Shown piece by piece: positions 5,037 through 52,968 of a DNA stretch of 52,968 bases. Below the pieces are notes generated by a model. That model had not been told where the DNA came from and did no database searches. It was given only the letters and a program-made list of their open reading frames with translations. Origin of the DNA: a virus (taxonomy: Duplodnaviria; Caudoviricetes); IMG/VR virus record IMGVR_UViG_3300030118_000298, positions 1 through 52,968 of that record. One strand, given 5' to 3'. The position numbers were made by a program, and so were the translations under genes. Position 1 is the stretch's first letter, and the number at the start of each line of letters is the position of its first letter.

Positions 5037-5687
5037 TCAAGTAGCAAAATCACAAATATTTTTTGCAGGACAAAACCTACATAAACCACTAGGTTTAGGT
5101 GGCCATTTATTATTTATGAATGATTGATTAATCCGTTCTGTTTTACTCAATAACTTTACCCACATGTCATCTGACTCTGTTCTATCATATGTATGTGAGT
5201 CTAGTGCCATATCCTTCAGCCATACAAAAGTTGACTGGACTTGTTTTATATTTGGAAAATGTTGGAACACCTGCAATGCAAACATCTCTAGCTGTGAGAA
5301 GTCGGGTCTACGTTTGCCAGTCTTCCAATCCATAACGATAGCCTTATCATCAAACAAAACTAGAACATCAAGTATGGATCGTAACCAAGCGTCTTTCTCC
5401 CACCAAGTTGTTGGTGTAAGGTTTTCATTTAGTGTAAGCTTCTGCTCTACTTGTAAAGTTCCACCCATACCCTCTATGCTTTTACATAGAGGTTCATAGG
5501 CTTCTGACTCAGTAGGCAATGCCACCTGTTTATCTAGTCGATGTTCGAGTGCTTCGTGTATTCGCTCACCATAGATAGTGGCATCGCTACCTGTATCCTT
5601 TACTTCTTTGGTTACCCTTTGATGGTAATATCGTTTAGGGCAGTTCTCATACATCTTAATAGATGAGAACGAATGTGATAATGTCAT
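5037..5687 (-). CDS. PD-(D/E)XK exonuclease (RecB/Cas4-like)
   Basis: SFSSIKMYENCP, ILDV..MDWKTGK, QLEMFA, C-terminal LCRFCP..IC. Confidence 0.85.
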   Translation of the reverse strand: MTLSHSFSSIKMYENCPKRYYHQRVTKEVKDTGSDATIYGERIHEALEHRLDKQVALPTESEAYEPLCKSIEGMGGTLQVEQKLTLNENLTPTTWWEKDAWLRSILDVLVLFDDKAIVMDWKTGKRRPDFSQLEMFALQVFQHFPNIKQVQSTFVWLKDMALDSHTYDRTESDDMWVKLLSKTERINQSFINNKWPPKPSGLCRFCPAKNICDFAT

Positions 5688-42185: not shown

Positions 42186-45100
42186 ATGGCCCCGAAAAAG
42201 GCAGGATTAAAAGCATTTGAGAGTTCTTACTATGATGCTACTACTGCGCCCGGAGCTGGAAACCCATTCGTAGCGCAAACAGGTTCATCAGGATTAGGAC
42301 AGTTAAATGCACAACTAACTGATCAGTTAGTTCAAGAACAAGCAGAGTTTGAAAACTTAGAAACAGTCCTTGGTGGAGGATTTAATAAACCACCGGAGAC
42401 TGGGCCTCGTGTATTGTTTAGTCCTTCAACTAATCAGATGTTTGTTAATGGTGCATTGTATGATGCTGATGACAAACAATCAGCATTAGATGCAGAGTCT
42501 CGTGGATTTTTAGACAGACCAAGAGCAGCACAGCCTGAAGGCGCAGACTGGCAAACTGTATCACCTGAATCTTATAAAACATTTATGAATAACATAGAAG
42601 ACCCCGGCTTGGGGACTCTTATGGCTAGAAACTTTGAGATTGGTGGTAGTAATCTAAAACTACTTGCTGGTCGAGGTATGCAATTTCTTGGTGCTGAAGA
42701 AACAGGACAAAGTATAGTTGATAATGCAGTACGAGAACTCTATTACAACCAACCATTTCAAAGAGAATTTACTGAGATAGAAGTAGGTAGTAGCTCAAAC
42801 GGAGCTATTGATTGGTTTGTAGCTAACTTAGCACAGCAAGGGCCAAACTTAATAGAATCTATTGCTGTTGCTTTGCTTGGTGCAGGAGCAGGTGCAGTTG
42901 CAGGTGGTGGTGCTAACCCATTTACTGCAGCAGGTGGTGCTATATATGCGTTACTAGGTAAAGAAGCAGTAAAAAAATCTGTACTAAAAGCTGCTACAAA
43001 ATATACAAAAGGTCAGGCTCTTACCAAAGGTGAGAAAAAACTACTTCGTGAGTTTTCAGGTCTAACAGCTGCAGCAAAACTTAAAAACCCTAATGCTTTT
43101 TTTGTAACTTCTAGCGGCACAACTATGACTGGATCACAACTTCTCAAGAAAGAAGCTAAGAAAGGATTGTTTCAACCTGATGATACTTATTTGGCAGGCG
43201 CACTAAAAGCAAACAGATTAGGTAGAAACCAAGCTATTGCAGGTGGTGCTGCAGGTGCATCTGTAATTGGTTCTTATGGTATGGGTGTTGCCGATATCTA
43301 TGGTGAAGTAAGAGATACAGGCGTAGGTGATAGAGGTACAGCAGCTTTAGGTGCTATACCATATGCAGCACTAGAAACACTTCCAGAATTTTTCTTAGCA
43401 GGTCGTATCTTTGGTCTTGGCCCTGATATTATTAAATCAGGTGGTGTAGCCAAACGTGCAGGTAAAGGATTGTTTGTAGGTGGTACGTTAGAAGGTCTAA
43501 CTGAACTTGGACAAGAAGCTATTATACTTACAGGTACAGATCAACTTGGTGATGCCGAAACAACTAAACGATTAATTAATTCTTTTGCAGCTGGTTTTGC
43601 TATTGGTGGCCCACTTGGTGGTGGTGCTAACTTACTTAAACGAGGTGAACCTACTGATTTAATAAATGAAGAAAATCCACAGGCTGATCAAAAGTTATTG
43701 CCCGCCCCTCCTGAAGGGACTCCTCCTCCTCAAGGTCAAGGGCAGTTACCCCCACCTGCAGGGCCTGCTGCTTTACTTACTGGGCCTCCTAGTCAAGACC
43801 CTGCTTTCCCCGGGCCGCAGTTCGTTGCAGGTGAACAAGGGGTACAACAAGTAACACAGCAAGGTGAGTTATTCCCACAACAAGATTTAGGGCAGCAAAG
43901 CGTTCAAGCGCAAGATACTGTGCCACAAGAAGTACCAGACGTTACAACTGAGAGAACTCCTCAAGTTATTGCTGCAGAAGCTGCAGCACAACCACAGCCT
44001 ACACAAGCTGAACTAGAAGCAGCTGGTCAGTTACCTTTAGCATCTACAGACCCTACAGGTTTTGGTGTTCAAGCTGCTGTTACCCCGGAAACAGAACAGA
44101 CAGCCATAGGACAACAACTTCTACAAGCTGCTAATAACAGAATACGAGAACAACAAAACCAAATCGCTGAAGAACAAAGGATTAGACAAGAAGCTGAAGA
44201 AAGAGCGCAAAGACAAAGAGAGTTTGATTTAGCTGAACAGCAAAGATTAAATCAGCAAGTGGCTCAGTTAGAAAATGCTAGGGTAGAACAGATACTAAAA
44301 GAAAACGAAAGGCTTACTCAAGAAGTTGAGGAGCGTAAAGCTCGTGAACAAGCACAGATTGCTATACCACAAAGACAACCTCGACAGTTAAGTTTGCCGG
44401 GAATGGCAGTACCATATAGTGCAAGACGACAAGCACTACGAAGAGGTGCAGCTGCAGCACCTGTTGTTGCAGAGCCTACTGCTGCTGAGCTAGAGCAAGC
44501 AGGTCAGATGACATTACCATTTCCTGAGCCTCCTGCTTCTGAGATAGCTCCACTTGTAGAGCGTATGCTAGCTGATGGTATACCCATTCAAAACATACAA
44601 GAATATATAGATGACTTCCAAGCTGCTATAGACAACAACGACTTGGTAGAACAAGACAATATTATTGCGGAGATGGAAGGGGTTGTAGAAAGTTTTAACA
44701 GACCTCGTAGAAGAGCTACTGCTTTGTCTGCTCCTGCTCAAAATCTTGTTAATGAATTAACTAGAGGGCCGGGAGAAGTAATATCTCAAGTACAAGATAC
44801 TGTTACCACAGAAGATGGTAGGGTTTTACCTATTACTAGAACCAGTTTTCAACAACCAGCAATACCAACACAAAGGAGGACAGATGCCGTTCAGGAGCAA
44901 AGCACAGATGAAGTGGATGTACGCCAACAAACCGAACCTAGCAGCGAAGTTCGCAGAGGAGACGCCGCAAGACGCCAAACTGCCAGAGAGAATAAGCTCC
45001 AAGAGCAACTCAGAAAAGCGACAGCTCGCCAGACAGAGAACTTTACGAAAGAAGAACAACGAGCGATTCGGGAAGCTAACCAAGAAGCTCGCCGTCAACA

Positions 45101-48100
45101 AGTTCAGAAATCAACCTCTTTAGAAGCTATTCTTGAAAAGCCAATGATACCTGTACAAGGTAGAACACCCCAAGAAATGTGGGATGAATTATCTTCAGGT
45201 ATAGCTGTTGCTTATACAAGACTACCTAAAGAATTTAGGGATACATGGAATCAATATGTAGCAGGTGATACTGTTAATGGTGATCTGGCTGCTCTAATAA
45301 GTCAAAATGCTTATTTAGAATTAGATAGTAGAAATGAAAGAGAAGGTGGTCTTACCGATTTAGATAGGGTCGATGAATATATAGCAGCATTTGATGCCAC
45401 TACTGATTTTAGTAGGCATGGCACAGCTTGGTCTTATTCTAATCAACTTGTATCTCTTGCATTTTTTGATCCGGCAGGAGGTGTAAATAAAGAAGCAAGA
45501 GCAAAAGCTATTAGATATTTGAAAGATACTACCTTTAGCCCACAACAGCAGAATGCTTTAGATACAGCATTTATTAATACTATAAATACAGGTGATCCTC
45601 AGACTGGTATTGTTCAGGGTAAAAACCAACCTTGGCTTGAGTATGCTACACGAAGAAGCTTAGAAGGTGAGATAACAGTTGCTCTCAATAATATGCCAGC
45701 GTGGTTTACTTCTCCACAAGCTGCTGTAATCAGACAAACTGTAGCTGATACACAGCAACAAGGTGAAGTGCTTGGGCAAGAAACTGCAGATACCATGATT
45801 AAATTACTCCGTAGACGACAAGCTCTCGGAGAAACTATTGACTTCTCAACTCTTAGTGAAGCTTACGATGAAGCATTGGGTAAGTCCGGTAGAAAAAAAG
45901 CAAGAGAAGTACAAAAAGAATTTAATCGTGAGAATGCCCAACAACTAGAAATTATATTGGACTCTCATCTTGAGAAGGTTGAGACTAGAGATTTACGAAT
46001 GGTGTATAATCCAGTCGTAGAGATAAGGTCTGACCTTCCGGGCAAACCCGATCCTGCTACAAATAAGATGAACGTTCTTTTTGCCAATTCAAACAAAGAT
46101 TATATTATGGCAAATGGATACAGACTAAGAGATTTCTTTGATAGTGCAGGCGTACTTAAAACAAAACGTTTATATAATGGTCGTATGGTTCCTGATCCTA
46201 CTCCTCAGAACCAGCAAGAAACAAGACGATTGATTACTGATGCACAGAAACTTTTACAAAGAGGTAGACGTACTCAAGCAGAAAATACTAGGCTTGATAG
46301 ACTTGAACCATTTGCTGAACAAGCAAGACAAGCTGATTCAAAAACTGACGAGTCAGGAAACTTTCTTAGGTTTACAGATGAAAAGCCTGTAAAACCTATG
46401 GGTCGAGGTGAAATTGACCTTGTAGTAAAACAAGTTCTCAAAAAACTAAAAGTAAAACCTACTGTTACTATTGTAGAAAATGTACGAGACCTAGCTCAAA
46501 AAAATCCAGCCTTATACAAACGAGCTGCAGATGGCAGACCTCTTGGTGATTTTGATAGTGTTCAAGCAGTTGGCTATTCTGTTGGTGATCAAGTCATAAT
46601 CTTTAGTGATTATGCAAAAACCAAAGAACAGATACGACTAGTTGTAGCTCACGAAGCACTGGGTCACTTCGGTTTCCGTGCCTTTATGCCTCGTGATAGA
46701 ATGAATGCTATCTTCCGTGAGATATATAGAACAGATGGACATGTAAAAGCTGCTGCTGATATTAAAATGCGTTCTAATCCTCGTATGGATATGATGGAAG
46801 CAGTAGAAGAAGTTCTTGCTGATAAAGCTGCGGCGTTTGATAGTCACCTAATATACCGTGTTAGAAACCTAGTTCAGGCTGTGTTAGATGCTATAGGTTT
46901 AGGTGATCTTATAAACTTTGGCGATACAGATATCACGCGCTACTTCCTAAGACAATCTCGTAGGAACTTAATGACAGGTGGCAGAGGTGTTGTAGGTGTG
47001 CAACAGCTAGCTCAAAACATGAAAGACCTAGAAGCAGAAAGTGTTAATGGTAGGTTTTCTATTGAGAATATAACAAGCACTCATGCTACTAACTTTATGA
47101 ATTTGTATTCTTCCAATAAGAAAGCAGGATCGTTTGGTTCTTTTGATAAAATTCAAGAGTTACTTAAAAAGATACCGAAACAAAAAGGTAAAGCAGCATC
47201 TAGGGTCTTTGCTTCTGCAGCTGAAACTGTTCAGACTCTTGATAACAAAGCACAACGTAGTTCAGGACTACAGGAAATATTTAGAATATTCCAAAAGTCT
47301 GGTGGTAAAACTAGACGAGCCATGTCTGAATACGAAAGGCTTACATCATTTACACACACTCCAAATTGGTTTGGATTTGGTAAAGGGCCAACAGATCAAG
47401 AGTTAAAACTAGGAGGTGAGATGCTTGCCTATGGTGCTGTTTTCAAAGCAAGACAAGTGACACCAGCAGATATTAAACAAGCAGGTATGGAGCAAGGTGA
47501 TTTACTATCAGGTAAAGGTTCAGGTACTGAAAGAGTTAATAATGATGTGCGTAAGCAACTAGAAGAACAAGGTATTGTATCTAAAGAAGAGTTTAGAAAT
47601 GGTATACCTTATGTCTTAGCTGATAACACACAAGGCACAAAAGTTTTTCGAAATGATGATGGTTCTGCTTTAGATGAGCAGACGTTTGAAAATGCGTACA
47701 GAGTCTATATAGAAAACAGAAGAGCTGTAAATCAAGCTGCTATTGATAATCTTAATGCAAACATAGAAGCTGTTGCAGGACAGCGAGATCAAACACTAAA
47801 AAGATTTGCAAAGTTTAAAACAGATGAAGGATTCATTGGAGATGATGCAACCAATATAACAGCTCTTGAAAGAATCATAGAAGAATACTCTAACCTTATT
47901 ACAGAAAATGCAGATGCTGAAGGTAATATTAATCCTGCGTCTGTAGAAAAAGCACAAAGATTTATACGAGCTATCAACAGAGCTTTTTGGGAAGATAAAA
48001 AAGTAGATGATTGGCAGAATAGTAGAGAAGATACTGCTGAGTTTCAAGGTGGTGCTTATTCAGATATCATAGCTAAAATACCAGACCTACGAGCATTAGG

Positions 48101-50750
48101 TGTTGGTAAAGATCGTTCGTTTCAAATAACCAATGCTATCTCAAACATGTTTACATTAGACTCACAAGTACAACGAGAGTTGTTCAGAGCTAAGCAAACT
48201 CTTATTACAGGGTATGTACCATTTGCTAGACGAGGTAAATGGCAAGTTCGTATGCAAGCCTACGATGAAAAAGGTAATGCAGTAAAACTACAAGAAGATT
48301 TCGCTGGATCACTACCATACTTCCAAACTGATGTAGAAGCTACAGCACAAGAGATAGCTGACGACATTAACACAAGACTATTTAGTATGGAGGGTGATCC
48401 TGAAACACAAAGAGCTGGCGACCCAATCAAATTTGATATGGTTAACGAAGATGGTAATCCAGTAAAAGTAACTCTTAGACCACAGATATCAAAAGCTAGG
48501 CAGTCACAACCACTTGCTAATAGCTTGAATCTTATGGAGTTTATGAACATTGTTAATCGTTTGAACATTGGTCTTACCATACAAGAACGAGCAAGAATTA
48601 TTACTGGTCTATCACCTGTTAGTAGTAGAGCAAGATCAAGTTTGCAAAGAGCAGGTAACCCCGGCTGGGATACAGATGTTGTCAGGAGTGTTGCAGAGCA
48701 TTTAGAAACACAAGCACACACAGCTGGTAAGACAGCATTCGCATGGCAACTTACTGATATTATGGCAAACGATGGTTTGTTCAGAGGTGATCCATCTAGG
48801 TTGGCAGAATTAGAAAGAGAAACTAGAAAAGGTACAGAAGCACAGCGTGAAGAGGCTATGAAAAAATATGAAGAGTATGCTTACTCATATAGTCATTCCG
48901 CTGACCAAGGAGCAGACAGAGCAAAGACTAGACTTGGTTTACTCAAAGCAGCAAGAAATGAACAGTTAACTGAAAGTGATTTCATACCCAACGAAGGTAG
49001 AGGTGAAGACTACAGACTAGAAGCAAACAAACTTATAAAGTTTTATTCTGAATCAGCTAATATTATGGATTCAACGGAAGACCTTTTATCTAGCGATGTT
49101 GGCTCAAGACTCAAACTAGCAGCTGTACTACTACAACTTGGTGGTTCTGTTGCTACTGCTATGATTAACTTAATATCTTTACCAACTCACACAATCCCAT
49201 ACCTAGGTACTTACAATGAAGCTAGAGGTTACGGAGGTGGCTTTGGTCTTGTTAATTCTGCAGGTGCAGTAATGCGAGCTGTATCTAGTATATGGCGAGG
49301 AGGTCTAGCTAATTACGATAATATCTATGAGGTTGCTAAAGGTAATAATAAAGATGCACGACAGGAAGAGCTTGGTATAAGCCAAGACGAGGCTGACGCA
49401 TTGTTAGATGCCACAGCTTCCGGTGTGTTACAAGCTGCACAGTTCAACGCATTGGTTGGAACATCCAGAGGTGGTAGATCGAGTAACAGGTTGAATGGTT
49501 CAATCAAAGCATGGATGTCTATGTTCTCATACACAGAACAGTTAAACAGACGAGCTACGTTTCTTGCAGCATACAGACTAGAACGTGAAAGAATCCTTGC
49601 TACTAACAACCTTGGTGGTCTAGCAAATCTAAGGCAGAACCTTCCGGAAGAGGCGGCGTTCGTAGAGCAACAAGCAATGACGTTTGCTACAAAGGCAGTA
49701 AATACATCACAGGGTGAATATGCTATGTATAACAGACCCGAGATGGCTAGAGGAAACTTAGCACAATATATTTTCATGTATAAGCAGTTCCCTATTATTA
49801 CTGTGCAGTTGATGAAAGGATTGCCACGAAGTGGTAGGGTATATATGTTGACGTTATTGTTCCTTATGGCAGGTCTAAAAGGACTACCATTTGCTGACGA
49901 TTTGTTTGATATAATAGAAACATTGGCTCAGAAGTTTGGTATCAAGATGTCTACTGTAGAAGTAGAAGCATCTAAACTTGTTGACGCTTTCATCCCCGGC
50001 TACTCAGTGTATGCCATGAGAGGATTTCTTGATCCATTCTTTGGAGCAACATTCTCTACAAGATTAGGCTTTGGTGATTTGATCCCACTAACTGGTATGT
50101 TCAAAGCAAAGAACAATGCAGGTGAGATGTGGCAAGAAGCAAAGAACTTTGCAGGCCCAGTGTATAGTGGTATCGAAGGATTGTTTGGTACAGGCTCACA
50201 GTTCGTACGTTACGGAGCTGAGGCTGTAGGACTCAAAGACGACACAACACGTTTCACTGACATACTAAGAGACTCACCATCTGCCGCAGTACGAGGTGTA
50301 TTTGATGGGTTGTCTTATATGCAGGATGGAAGAATCACACGAACAGATGGTACTGTGATAAGTAAAGATGTTGGTGGTATGACAACGTTTTGGAGAATGT
50401 TAGGTTTCTATCCATACTCAGCATCACTACAGAACGATGCTATTAGAATGGGTAGACAGCAACAAGCATATGTAAAATCTATAAAGGCACATTATGTACA
50501 AGCATATGTAAAAGCTAGACTCGACAATGACAGGGCAGAAATGCGTAGGATTCTAAACTTTGTTAAAGAACATAACAAAGATGTAGGGCCAAAGTCAGAG
50601 TTCTTCTTTAGAAACTTTGTTCAATCTGCAAACAAGTCTTTCAAGTCTGCAAACTTAAATGCAATAGAAAGATTTAGAAAATTTGCACCAAAACAATCTC
50701 GTAGTTCTATCGACCAACTCTCTGAATTGTGGGGAATCGACCTAAATTAG
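42186..50750 (+). CDS. Giant (2854 aa) internal virion/polyvalent protein with zincin-like motif
   Basis: VVAHEALGHFG near 46650, VEEVLA; YVPFARRG (PLxRFG-like); TEQLNRRATFLAAY in the C-terminal region; last gene of the late arm. Confidence 0.75.
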   Translation: MAPKKAGLKAFESSYYDATTAPGAGNPFVAQTGSSGLGQLNAQLTDQLVQEQAEFENLETVLGGGFNKPPETGPRVLFSPSTNQMFVNGALYDADDKQSALDAESRGFLDRPRAAQPEGADWQTVSPESYKTFMNNIEDPGLGTLMARNFEIGGSNLKLLAGRGMQFLGAEETGQSIVDNAVRELYYNQPFQREFTEIEVGSSSNGAIDWFVANLAQQGPNLIESIAVALLGAGAGAVAGGGANPFTAAGGAIYALLGKEAVKKSVLKAATKYTKGQALTKGEKKLLREFSGLTAAAKLKNPNAFFVTSSGTTMTGSQLLKKEAKKGLFQPDDTYLAGALKANRLGRNQAIAGGAAGASVIGSYGMGVADIYGEVRDTGVGDRGTAALGAIPYAALETLPEFFLAGRIFGLGPDIIKSGGVAKRAGKGLFVGGTLEGLTELGQEAIILTGTDQLGDAETTKRLINSFAAGFAIGGPLGGGANLLKRGEPTDLINEENPQADQKLLPAPPEGTPPPQGQGQLPPPAGPAALLTGPPSQDPAFPGPQFVAGEQGVQQVTQQGELFPQQDLGQQSVQAQDTVPQEVPDVTTERTPQVIAAEAAAQPQPTQAELEAAGQLPLASTDPTGFGVQAAVTPETEQTAIGQQLLQAANNRIREQQNQIAEEQRIRQEAEERAQRQREFDLAEQQRLNQQVAQLENARVEQILKENERLTQEVEERKAREQAQIAIPQRQPRQLSLPGMAVPYSARRQALRRGAAAAPVVAEPTAAELEQAGQMTLPFPEPPASEIAPLVERMLADGIPIQNIQEYIDDFQAAIDNNDLVEQDNIIAEMEGVVESFNRPRRRATALSAPAQNLVNELTRGPGEVISQVQDTVTTEDGRVLPITRTSFQQPAIPTQRRTDAVQEQSTDEVDVRQQTEPSSEVRRGDAARRQTARENKLQEQLRKATARQTENFTKEEQRAIREANQEARRQQVQKSTSLEAILEKPMIPVQGRTPQEMWDELSSGIAVAYTRLPKEFRDTWNQYVAGDTVNGDLAALISQNAYLELDSRNEREGGLTDLDRVDEYIAAFDATTDFSRHGTAWSYSNQLVSLAFFDPAGGVNKEARAKAIRYLKDTTFSPQQQNALDTAFINTINTGDPQTGIVQGKNQPWLEYATRRSLEGEITVALNNMPAWFTSPQAAVIRQTVADTQQQGEVLGQETADTMIKLLRRRQALGETIDFSTLSEAYDEALGKSGRKKAREVQKEFNRENAQQLEIILDSHLEKVETRDLRMVYNPVVEIRSDLPGKPDPATNKMNVLFANSNKDYIMANGYRLRDFFDSAGVLKTKRLYNGRMVPDPTPQNQQETRRLITDAQKLLQRGRRTQAENTRLDRLEPFAEQARQADSKTDESGNFLRFTDEKPVKPMGRGEIDLVVKQVLKKLKVKPTVTIVENVRDLAQKNPALYKRAADGRPLGDFDSVQAVGYSVGDQVIIFSDYAKTKEQIRLVVAHEALGHFGFRAFMPRDRMNAIFREIYRTDGHVKAAADIKMRSNPRMDMMEAVEEVLADKAAAFDSHLIYRVRNLVQAVLDAIGLGDLINFGDTDITRYFLRQSRRNLMTGGRGVVGVQQLAQNMKDLEAESVNGRFSIENITSTHATNFMNLYSSNKKAGSFGSFDKIQELLKKIPKQKGKAASRVFASAAETVQTLDNKAQRSSGLQEIFRIFQKSGGKTRRAMSEYERLTSFTHTPNWFGFGKGPTDQELKLGGEMLAYGAVFKARQVTPADIKQAGMEQGDLLSGKGSGTERVNNDVRKQLEEQGIVSKEEFRNGIPYVLADNTQGTKVFRNDDGSALDEQTFENAYRVYIENRRAVNQAAIDNLNANIEAVAGQRDQTLKRFAKFKTDEGFIGDDATNITALERIIEEYSNLITENADAEGNINPASVEKAQRFIRAINRAFWEDKKVDDWQNSREDTAEFQGGAYSDIIAKIPDLRALGVGKDRSFQITNAISNMFTLDSQVQRELFRAKQTLITGYVPFARRGKWQVRMQAYDEKGNAVKLQEDFAGSLPYFQTDVEATAQEIADDINTRLFSMEGDPETQRAGDPIKFDMVNEDGNPVKVTLRPQISKARQSQPLANSLNLMEFMNIVNRLNIGLTIQERARIITGLSPVSSRARSSLQRAGNPGWDTDVVRSVAEHLETQAHTAGKTAFAWQLTDIMANDGLFRGDPSRLAELERETRKGTEAQREEAMKKYEEYAYSYSHSADQGADRAKTRLGLLKAARNEQLTESDFIPNEGRGEDYRLEANKLIKFYSESANIMDSTEDLLSSDVGSRLKLAAVLLQLGGSVATAMINLISLPTHTIPYLGTYNEARGYGGGFGLVNSAGAVMRAVSSIWRGGLANYDNIYEVAKGNNKDARQEELGISQDEADALLDATASGVLQAAQFNALVGTSRGGRSSNRLNGSIKAWMSMFSYTEQLNRRATFLAAYRLERERILATNNLGGLANLRQNLPEEAAFVEQQAMTFATKAVNTSQGEYAMYNRPEMARGNLAQYIFMYKQFPIITVQLMKGLPRSGRVYMLTLLFLMAGLKGLPFADDLFDIIETLAQKFGIKMSTVEVEASKLVDAFIPGYSVYAMRGFLDPFFGATFSTRLGFGDLIPLTGMFKAKNNAGEMWQEAKNFAGPVYSGIEGLFGTGSQFVRYGAEAVGLKDDTTRFTDILRDSPSAAVRGVFDGLSYMQDGRITRTDGTVISKDVGGMTTFWRMLGFYPYSASLQNDAIRMGRQQQAYVKSIKAHYVQAYVKARLDNDRAEMRRILNFVKEHNKDVGPKSEFFFRNFVQSANKSFKSANLNAIERFRKFAPKQSRSSIDQLSELWGIDLN
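44884..45123 (+). CDS. Overprinted 79-aa basic protein (MPFRSKAQMKWMYANKP...) in the +1 frame of the giant gene
   Basis: AAAGGAGG at 44872-44879, ATG at 44884; N-terminus resembles the MPFKS..Q..WM.AN.P small phage proteins as I recall them. Confidence 0.6.
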   Translation: MPFRSKAQMKWMYANKPNLAAKFAEETPQDAKLPERISSKSNSEKRQLARQRTLRKKNNERFGKLTKKLAVNKFRNQPL

Positions 50751-50961: not shown

Positions 50962-52968
50962 TCAAACTTCTTTATCTTTCACTACCTGTAGCTGTCCATA
51001 TGCCATATCATCAGCCACCACATCTGCATTTTCAAGTAGGCTTTGGAATCTTGGATGGGTTAGATTGAAACCTATCACATATGTTTGTGCTAGTTTGATT
51101 GGTGTATCTTTACCAAGTGATGCTTTCTCTGATCGAGGTGTAGCCAACGCATTCTCTACAACAAGTTCCTGTTTGAATGATTTATAATCCGCGCCGCGTA
51201 CGGACAACCATTTTCTGAAATGAGTCCTATCAATCATCATAGTACCCTTATCAAATATGTCTGATGCAGATTTTCTAAACACATCCAATCGGATTCGTAT
51301 ATCTCCTCTTGGTATCCTAGAGAAATCGGGTTGTGCTTTTTGTCCTACAGTGTGCATGATGGTTACAGATGTATCAGCACAATCAGCCATATACTCAGCA
51401 ACAAGGTCAAAGCAATCAACTTGGTTCTCTTGTACTGTTCTACGGATAGCACCTATCTGTGCTAATACCCACTCAGTAGCTTGTGTATAATCAAACTTAA
51501 TCAATCCCCACTCATTAGCTAGTTTCATACCTAGGTCTGCCAGTATGATTGATTGTTCCCAGTATCTTTCTTCACCACTAAACTTAGCTTTGTATTTCTT
51601 ATGAAAGTTATCTGATGCTTCAGCTATTGCAGACTGAATACCTTCTTCACCCATCGACAACAAGTTTATAATATACTGTCTACCTACTGACCCATAATGA
51701 GCATGGATAGCTTCGTATATTTTACGACCTGCTTCAGAGCCTCGTGTAAACAAAGGCACAGATGGTACAGTAAGTTCTAGTAGACGAGCCATTTGTGCAT
51801 CTGTATCCAGACCAGATGCTATCAGCTTACTTTGTAGAGACTTGTTGGTGGATACTATGACAGGTGTTGACCATGTTTTTGCATCTCTTTCTTCGGCATT
51901 GCGATTGAGTCTAGCTTTATCTCTACCCTGTGATACCCAATAACAGAAGTCACCGACCTCTTTATCGTTCATCATGGTTACTTCATCTATTGTCAGCGGT
52001 AGGTTAGCATATGTACCAAGTCGTGAGAACAAGCTGTTCTGTGTATACTTAGCCGCAAAGTGTAGCTTGTCGGGATTGCCATAGATAGACTGCGCCCAGT
52101 ATTGTGCTAGTGTTTTACCACCACCAGTTGGGCCATAGAGAGATACAGTTAATCCCTTGAGTCCTGTGAAGTTGTACAGTGGTGCTGAAAATCCAACACC
52201 TAAAGTAAACATATGTGATTTCAAACCTGCTTTTTCTAACACTGACGTTAGGTTTATCCACTGTTCTTTATCACCTTTACAATTATATAAGTCTGCACCT
52301 TGCTTCTGTATGCCCGATGCAAGACTTATTGATTCTTCTGTCACTCCTTCTGCTGTACGCTTTAGAAGTGTATCGCCTAAGACAAATGCCGTGTTCTTCT
52401 CTTTCCAACCCATAGTAGAATATAAGTTAGTCATAGTACGGATTTGCCTCAACTCATCCATATATGTTCTTAACATAAGCTGAAAATACTCCGTTTGTCT
52501 TTTGTTATATAACACAATCCCTTGATCTGCTATAGCTGTAGCAAACTCACGATTGCCTTCTGTTAGATATGCCTGTCTTAGTATGAGGTCTTGCCACCCC
52601 ATATGAGGTCTATTCCAGTGGTATCTAACTGTTTCATACCCTAATGATTCATCGAGTCCATAGCTGACAGGGTATATATCGAACTTACAGACATCTATAT
52701 CTGTATCATCTATGGTAACTTTTATACCATCTTGTGTTCTTTTAAATGGTTTTGGTATTGGTATCTGATTAGCTTGAGCATCGGGTGCTTCTGCTGATAG
52801 TGGTGCTTCTTGGTATTGTACACCTAGTCTTGCAGGTGAACCTATCTTACCTTTATATACACATCCCCTACATCCGTTTGGTCTATCTATCTCAAACTTA
52901 CCACAAGTTGTTGGGCCACTAGCTGAATCTTTCCAGTGGTTAAGTTTACTTATGGTAGCTTGGTAATC
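50962..52968 (-). CDS. Primase/helicase, C-terminal part (DUF927-like plus P-loop)
   Basis: YSTMGW, Walker A GPTGGGKT, LPLTIDE, GRDKAR, VSTN; frame open up to the window end. Confidence 0.85.
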   Translation of the reverse strand, partial: DYQATISKLNHWKDSASGPTTCGKFEIDRPNGCRGCVYKGKIGSPARLGVQYQEAPLSAEAPDAQANQIPIPKPFKRTQDGIKVTIDDTDIDVCKFDIYPVSYGLDESLGYETVRYHWNRPHMGWQDLILRQAYLTEGNREFATAIADQGIVLYNKRQTEYFQLMLRTYMDELRQIRTMTNLYSTMGWKEKNTAFVLGDTLLKRTAEGVTEESISLASGIQKQGADLYNCKGDKEQWINLTSVLEKAGLKSHMFTLGVGFSAPLYNFTGLKGLTVSLYGPTGGGKTLAQYWAQSIYGNPDKLHFAAKYTQNSLFSRLGTYANLPLTIDEVTMMNDKEVGDFCYWVSQGRDKARLNRNAEERDAKTWSTPVIVSTNKSLQSKLIASGLDTDAQMARLLELTVPSVPLFTRGSEAGRKIYEAIHAHYGSVGRQYIINLLSMGEEGIQSAIAEASDNFHKKYKAKFSGEERYWEQSIILADLGMKLANEWGLIKFDYTQATEWVLAQIGAIRRTVQENQVDCFDLVAEYMADCADTSVTIMHTVGQKAQPDFSRIPRGDIRIRLDVFRKSASDIFDKGTMMIDRTHFRKWLSVRGADYKSFKQELVVENALATPRSEKASLGKDTPIKLAQTYVIGFNLTHPRFQSLLENADVVADDMAYGQLQVVKDKEV
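52833..52968. repeat. Terminal direct repeat, right copy
   Basis: Matches 1-136 with two substitutions (52858, 52891). Confidence 0.95.

Follow-up and report, generated by a model that had tools for sequence, protein, structure and literature searches.

A conserved small gene probably nested within the giant virion-protein gene of a podophage-like genome

A short open reading frame (ORF) lies in the +1 frame wholly inside the gene for a putative 2854-residue virion protein in the IMG/VR record IMGVR_UViG_3300030118_000298, the whole of which (52,968 bases; completeness estimate, 99%) is referred to below as the window. Our sequence comparisons indicate that positions 44884-45123 of the window are very probably a real, selected, and independently initiated nested gene belonging to a family of small proteins that begin with MPFKS. 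Ribosomes would most likely start independently at a nested Shine-Dalgarno (SD) sequence and ATG on late messenger RNA, and the product would be a 79-residue, very basic protein whose first ~45 residues are a family member. To our knowledge, nested genes of tailed phages number only a handful of cases. Such genes stay invisible because gene callers forbid them. The features under discussion are as follows.

42186-50750, plus strand: giant host gene, 2854 amino acids, putative virion protein (internal or ejection type)
44872-44879, plus strand: SD sequence AAAGGAGG, 4 nucleotides before the nested ATG
44884-45123, plus strand: nested gene, 79 codons plus TAG (45121-45123), offset +1 to the host ORF
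44884-45018, plus strand: family module, nested residues 1-45, from the profile match and the motif
45007-45108, plus strand: C-terminal extension, nested residues 42-75, clade-specific, with one long basic helix predicted

The nested reading frame and its conservation

An earlier note on this DNA, made from the letters alone, had drawn attention to an SD sequence, an ATG at 44884, and a very basic 79-codon +1 ORF at this place, and every one of these items is present in the sequence, with a matching translation. Both frames are open across the entire overlap. The nested translation begins MPFRSKAQMKWMYANKPNLAAKFAEETPQDAKLPERI..., where the giant ORF reads ...QRRTDAVQEQSTDEVDVRQQ... within a charged linker rich in Q, E, R, and T (host residues ~900-979). 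The nested protein has 21 Lys and Arg residues against 6 Asp and Glu residues, with an isoelectric point of 11.1; counted from an earlier ATG, its frame is open for 102 codons. The SD sequence is created by an in-frame AGG-AGG (Arg-Arg) pair that is unique among the 2854 host codons, and its spacing, 10 nucleotides between the A of AGGAG and the nested ATG, matches the 10 to 11 nucleotides at other gene starts of the window phage. The earlier note had also judged the host codons to be less often A/T-ending here than elsewhere, which the counts bear out: the fraction is 0.61 in the overlap versus 0.77 over the whole giant ORF, a value as low being found in 2.6% of the 80-codon windows of that ORF, and the fraction of host codons with T at the third position falls from 0.38 to 0.20.

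The close clade consists of the window and loci L003 to L009, and all 8 of these sequences keep AAAGGAGG, the ATG, and 79 to 80 open codons in the +1 frame. Phase counts were made on 7 of them, L008 being omitted as its nested protein is identical to that of L007. In the overlap, variable columns at host codon positions 1, 2, and 3 numbered 40, 26, and 21 (of 79 each), while in a host-only downstream control with 5 sequences they numbered 199, 156, and 333 (of 481 each), a difference in phase pattern with a chi-square p value of 7.7e-5. Identity in the nested frame exceeded that in the host frame in 21/21 pairs (0.80 versus 0.67). One sub-lineage illustrates the pattern with a Ser codon that has gone from AGC to TCG, keeping the nested Ser and converting host EQ to VG.

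A second set was chosen without regard to the motif, through resemblance to the part of the host protein that follows the overlap. It comprises 31 loci, several of them contigs already met, with host identity as low as ~30%. The site lies outside the locus in 4 of the 31; all 27 that contain it have an ATG and an open +1 frame of 79 to 98 codons in the expected place, 19 of them matching the motif and 8 being MPIKS or MIKS variants. The persistence of SD, ATG, and open frame in related giant genes, on which the earlier note's proposal of a conserved nested gene hung, is thus what these loci display: counting the window, the ATG is present in 28/28 loci, and an SD-like GGAG core, read by eye in the upstream strings, precedes it in 22/22 unique sequences of the window lineage. 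Pairwise differences over 24 codons in these 28 loci (22 unique sequences) numbered 1593, 975, and 2173 at nested positions 1, 2, and 3, so that the host wobble position, which is nested position 2, is the least changed and the nested third position the most; the host-only flank shows the reverse. Nested identity was the higher in 217/231 pairs, with 3 reversed and 11 equal. On these comparisons, the +1 frame is under purifying selection beyond any shadow cast by the host frame.

The small-protein family and its hosts

A degenerate DNA pattern for MPFKS..Q.K..YA, run over IMG/VR, returned at least 120 loci. Among them, 60 copies stand alone (median, 43 amino acids), 48 are nested (median, 44 amino acids), 8 form the N-terminus of a protein of more than 150 amino acids, and 4 fall in an undecided class. 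The 48 nested copies are all at offset +1, one small gene thus recurring in this arrangement in many uncultured phages; the sole candidate for offset +2 (L111) proved to be a stand-alone gene overlapping the start of a portal gene. Among the 48 listed nested copies, 11 are in hosts of at least 1000 amino acids, and the hosts of the other 37 were seen for 150 to 999 amino acids, 26 of them being complete at 377 to 419 amino acids. Codons fixed by the pattern were excluded from phase counts of these loci because the search itself imposes their conservation. The remaining differences at nested positions 1, 2, and 3 were 756, 668, and 1237 and 345, 250, and 500 in two sets of nested copies and 8230, 5282, and 13191 in stand-alone copies, the same pattern in both arrangements.

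A search of 1.84 billion representatives with a profile (A2) built from 52 members, the window sequence included, gave 4305 clusters at E<=1e-3, of which 453 reached E<=1e-10, and in ~136 of the best 150 matches the module starts at residue 1 or 2 of proteins of 45 to 761 amino acids. The profile's match to window positions 44884-45018, at an E value of 1.5e-21, is circular, since A2 contains the window sequence. The module reads MPF[KR]S..Q.K..YA..P..A..F over two short helices, followed by ETP..KLP and a basic stretch; M1, P2, F3, S5, Q8, K10, and A14 are invariant in the 52 sequences, an invariance partly imposed by the search pattern. Many members end in Lys runs, and most are 40 to 48 amino acids long and lack the C-terminal extension that is conserved in the window clade. 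AlphaFold2, given the family alignment, placed helices at residues 6-15 and 17-26, plus one at 42-75 in the window clade only, with a mean predicted local distance difference test (pLDDT) score of 89.5. The module is accordingly predicted to be a two-helix hairpin that begins with MPFKS and continues into a TPK..LP basic tail. A Foldseek search of the model against the PDB gave no match at E<=0.001, the best E value being 6.

The earlier note had likened the start of the nested protein to that of stand-alone small phage proteins, and such homologues exist. Besides the 60 stand-alone pattern loci, they include gp9 of the isolate Barnyard, a 40-residue protein of Prochlorococcus phage P-RSP2 (HQ332139; L010, 2501-2620), and a 36-residue protein of Synechococcus phage S-CBS2 (GU936714; L012, 2501-2608), the latter two in gaps without an annotated gene. 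The P-RSP2 ORF is 57.6% identical by tblastn over nested residues 1-33 (E = 2e-4). In the PHROG library, the only family matched by the 79-residue protein is phrog_1375, and weakly (E = 1.2e-4), nested residues 3-37 aligning with positions 17-56 of the 70-position profile; at E<=1e-3 none was found for the short relatives L016 and L014 (both stand-alone) and L074 or for the ~400-residue hosts. Pfam gave no credible family for the 79- or 102-residue forms, for three short stand-alone relatives, or for three ~400-residue hosts. A tblastn search of the phage collection with a stand-alone member gave a single record, which means either that cultured carriers are few at that sensitivity or that the query was masked as low-complexity; a word-indexed protein search gave 3 close relatives only, all on contigs shorter than 1 kb, and nothing in the phage collection matched window positions 44300-45700 by blastn. 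ESM Atlas returned viral clusters of 48 to 59 amino acids without names, together with a DUF3008 lead at a score of 0.83.

Like the P-RSP2 and S-CBS2 copies in their gaps, nested copies have been passed over by annotation, as the earlier note had suspected: the nested ORF is unannotated in MW202828 and in the Elemovirus record MT497078, and under other Elemovirus matches the annotation names only a "structural protein." The family that emerges is very large, with 4305 representative clusters, lacks a Pfam model, and is frequently misannotated. Listings and abstracts of papers yielded no description of the nested gene, whether searched by peptide text or for Elemovirus phages, and neither did abstracts on overlapping genes with internal virion proteins or on embedded genes under purifying selection. 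Since cultured Flavobacterium Elemovirus phages carry a nested copy (42 amino acids; L002, 3583-3711), experiments on it are feasible there.

The same ~45-residue module heads longer proteins (P0133, P0124, P0080, P0017, and P0036 and those of loci L066 and L019) that have varied C-terminal domains. These domains include InPase plus a glycine zipper, DUF5661, and NUDIX plus DUF2213; by eye, two other long members show a P-loop and a ParB-like DGHHR motif. It looks as though different cargo domains share one N-terminal leader.

Nested copies sit in two unrelated classes of head-interior genes, those for giant virion proteins and those for ~400-residue proteins at the scaffold position. The ~400-residue hosts lie between portal and capsid-type structural protein genes in the two loci on whose synteny their scaffold identity rests. 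When these hosts were compared with the giants (BLAST with the low-complexity filter off), similarity was essentially restricted to the nested gene: among the segments listed, 30/30 cover it, most being 29 to 99 amino acids long, and three longer ones of 118 to 217 amino acids (29 to 36% identity) continue into acidic sequence. Records with a nested copy have exactly one family match each (11/11, 7 of them 99 to 100% complete), and the nested copy is likewise the sole profile match in the window genome. In a 40-column tree of 90 members, the nested or stand-alone label needs 7 changes, at least 3 of them forced by supported branches, and one supported clade mixes copies from giant hosts with copies from scaffold-position hosts.

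Because of the breadth of the family, the confinement of host similarity to the nested gene, its single copy, and the tree, the small gene is on present sequence evidence the older partner, and the host ORFs cross it in the -1 frame, where it supplies a passenger linker. It would thus have been engulfed by the big gene and not invented inside it, the reverse of the usual overprinting story. Such engulfment appears to have happened at least three times, unless the small gene moved between unrelated hosts.

A further proposal, which we consider rather unlikely, is that the MPFKS hairpin acts as a portable leader with the message "put me in the head" and that its gene doubles as a recombination joint. 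Giant polyvalent and scaffold-position genes would then be built or remodelled by fusing neighbors across the older small gene, which would survive translated in the other frame while its conserved nucleotides serve as a homology patch for module swaps. The hints of this are the confinement of similarity to the nested gene, the interleaved tree, and two junctions. Similarity between the window and L003, its closest relative at 97% identity, breaks off immediately before the SD sequence, and Flavobacterium phage L002 (MT497078) has a ~26-nucleotide exact direct repeat of the nested start, at ~3186 and ~3582. The two copies, 396 nucleotides apart, flank a 132-residue insertion, and the upstream one gives a truncated MPFKSKKLMK followed by a stop codon. 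The repeat looks like a domain insertion or a recombination scar at the nested start.

Alternative readings

Several observations weigh against an independently initiated, selected gene. The length of the nested ORF is unremarkable, as the giant ORF contains other plus-strand alternative-frame ORFs of 50 to 90 codons, and it is because of its conservation, not its length, that the nested ORF exceeds chance. Outside the window clade, an SD-like core precedes only 1/35 and 2/10 nested copies; it precedes 11/57 stand-alone copies, and this scarcity in stand-alone copies too makes SD conservation look like a lineage habit. Those family matches of the window copy that are independent of the profile are modest (E = 1.2e-4 and 2e-4), and the 40-column tree is poorly resolved. 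Finally, a Cys-containing subfamily keeps the host frame fairly well (0.62 versus 0.72 in the nested frame), with the host frame favored in 18/276 pairs, and may have an added host-frame function.

The last point bears on the possibility that selection acts on a host-frame peptide (DAVQEQST..., perhaps a cleavage or docking motif common to internal proteins and scaffolds) and that the +1 ORF is an untranslated by-product. The earlier note had said that such text recurs in giant phage proteins and had taken it for the shadow of the nested gene. The text, as DA[VI]Q[EK]Q, does recur in other giant phage proteins, exactly over the +1 MPFKS ORF; it is also found in the scaffold-position proteins, both kinds being procapsid-internal, and this recurrence, like the 0.62 identity kept in the Cys subfamily, is what a host-frame motif would predict. 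Substitution phase and identities favor the +1 frame instead. Within the overlap, host wobble positions vary least and host position 1 most, the reverse of the host-only flank, and the host frame is the less conserved in the 217 pairs counted above. In non-Cys nested copies, the ratio of host to nested identity (0.27/0.48) equals that of stand-alone copies (0.25/0.46), where the -1 frame is noncoding. The protein is free-standing, with the host frame closed, in 60 of the at least 120 loci, and M(P)IKSKAQLKWL persists in the nested frame where the host text has drifted to DANKIKSP or NDKKQGP. We therefore regard selection on the host peptide with an idle +1 frame as highly improbable and the earlier note's shadow interpretation as the sounder one.

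Two further alternatives accept the family and dispute the expression. The small gene, being older than the host linker, might have been engulfed by the giant ORF, have lost expression, and simply not have decayed yet, and internal starts within a translated ORF are usually weak. Such a relic seems very unlikely in view of the persistence of frame, ATG, and SD in 27/27 relatives down to ~30% host identity, of a phase pattern that is that of a gene under purifying selection, and of the fact that the nested copy is the sole copy in 11/11 genomes checked. Alternatively, the +1 frame could be reached by programmed frameshifting without any free 79-residue protein, either to join the host N-terminus to the nested tail or to let a nested leader shift -1 into the host as a leader-cargo fusion. 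An internal SD sequence could stimulate such a shift, as SD-stimulated frameshifting does occur in prfB and dnaX; same-frame fusions of leader module and cargo exist elsewhere, and many family members end in Lys runs. We nevertheless consider recoding extremely improbable: stand-alone genes use the same Met as their start, the ATG is kept in 28/28 loci despite variation (D/N, A/D) in the overlying host residues, and X_XXY_YYZ heptamers are absent from the window's nested ORF and rarer in nested copies (7/34 and 2/10) than in stand-alone ones (24/58). The idea of a frameshift back into the host is not supported by these heptamer counts. As a separate observation on IMG/VR loci L013 to L132, A_AAA_AAN runs nearly vanish in nested copies (1/34 and 0/10, versus 11/58 in stand-alone copies).

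Possible role and genome context

If the nested gene is expressed as an independent gene, the question becomes what its product does. From sequence context, we infer a basic helical-hairpin protein associated with the head. That it works inside or at the phage head is possible, if some way short of probable, and this role is favored because of gene neighborhood and domain fusions only. It might act there as a DNA-associated basic peptide or as a hairpin that docks to the capsid or portal; at the front of longer proteins, the module would then be a leader that gets cargo packaged. The links to portal, scaffold-position, and giant ejection-type genes, taken with the cargo domains, offer a hypothesis for how proteins are loaded into capsids. 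A complex prediction of the nested protein with the window portal scored 0.00 and, having been run without controls, speaks neither for nor against binding.

Neighbors were searched at 13 stand-alone loci, and a head or packaging neighbor (portal, terminase, major head protein, adaptor, or the like) was found at 8 of them, listed first below.

L021, L111, L118: small gene directly upstream of the portal gene
L067: order terminase, portal, small gene, 848-residue protein
L116: small gene after the major head protein and adaptor genes
L123: small gene after the portal gene
L103: terminase near the small gene
L074: small gene between a connector-type gene and a structural protein gene
L017, L022, L055: neighbors gave no family
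L101: methyltransferase upstream
L130: glycosyltransferase upstream

A further stand-alone member, of 57 amino acids, is found in L090 at oriented position 5541, starting 2 nucleotides after a 1608-residue homologue of the C-terminal region of the giant host in L127; this is adjacency to a giant, not nesting.

Two findings count against a head role, namely, that 5/13 stand-alone loci have no head-related neighbor and that the P-RSP2 copy is found ~7 kb from the start of its record, in a stretch of small ORFs without annotation and away from recognizable head genes. Both lend themselves to the main functional rival, an intracellular factor such as a nucleic-acid- or ribosome-binding regulator, a counter-defense peptide, or a tuner of giant-gene translation. 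The protein's strong basicity, short helical hairpin, and S/TPKK-like tail would suit such a factor, and two of those five loci adjoin a methyltransferase or glycosyltransferase gene. It is nonetheless a somewhat unlikely role, given that linkage is mostly to portal, scaffold-position, adaptor, terminase, and giant virion genes and that the module is fused to domains typical of packaged polyvalent proteins, InPase being so described in the part of Iyer et al. consulted (2017; PMC5512222).

Among known systems, the Rz/Rz1 spanin gene pair of lambda and its relatives has a similar arrangement, a small gene that has its own start, is entirely contained in the +1 frame of a larger phage gene, and is conserved across many phages. 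Rz1, a lipoprotein, carries a signal sequence and acts in lysis, and across phages Rz and Rz1 may be embedded, overlapped, or separate. The nested protein described here, by contrast, has no signal or lipobox and is basic and helical; its hosts are virion or scaffold-position genes, the direction of evolution differs, and the embedded gene's family is far more widespread than any host segment. Capsid-targeting elements provide a second comparison, by analogy only: P22 scaffolding protein has a C-terminal helix-turn-helix and T4 has a capsid-targeting sequence, and the nested protein resembles these in being a short basic helical hairpin or N-terminal leader that is found with scaffold or internal-protein genes and with varied cargo. 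No sequence or fold match links it to the P22 or T4 elements. DUF3008 (PF11450) is likewise a small, basic, phage-associated protein whose N-terminal text looks similar. The nearest named ESM Atlas cluster carries DUF3008 on 15% of its members, at the score of 0.83 given above, which being below 0.9 is a lead only; the Pfam model of DUF3008 had no match to the nested protein even at E<=10, and we do not assign the protein there.

Polyvalent proteins resemble the present system in that the host may be a giant multimodule virion protein and has an HExxH motif, and in the InPase domain carried by long family members, which the consulted part of the same paper places in packaged polyvalent proteins (PMC5512222). 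Cassette-like recombination is also raised for polyvalent proteins in that part (PMC5512222). The paper differs in reporting no nested gene, the words "overlapping" and "frameshift" being absent from the portion of its text that was available (PMC5512222).

The window genome is podophage-like and encodes a family-A DNA polymerase, an SNF2 helicase, a terminase, a portal, tail fibers, and an internal virion protein. The giant ORF stands at the end of the late structural arm, after the portal, tail-fiber, and internal-virion-protein genes. The C-terminal 530 amino acids of its product match phrog_11358 (E = 1.6e-40), and at the C-terminus only this family and phrog_21376 match; a Pfam search of the giant protein gave no family, including no polyvalent-protein domain. 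An HExxH motif (VVAHEALGHFGF) was read by eye at host residues ~1490-1500, where no Pfam peptidase family was detected, and the giants of L001 and L002 likewise carry HExxH by eye. Also inside the giant ORF, at 47411-47421, an AGGAG is followed 10 nucleotides on by an in-frame ATG (47421), a possible internal start that would yield a separate 1109-residue C-terminal product of the giant gene. Elsewhere, a DUF927/primase-helicase-like ORF on the minus strand runs off both ends of the record (2-985 and 50962-52968), and the pair has the appearance of a single gene interrupted where a complete, circularly permuted genome was opened.

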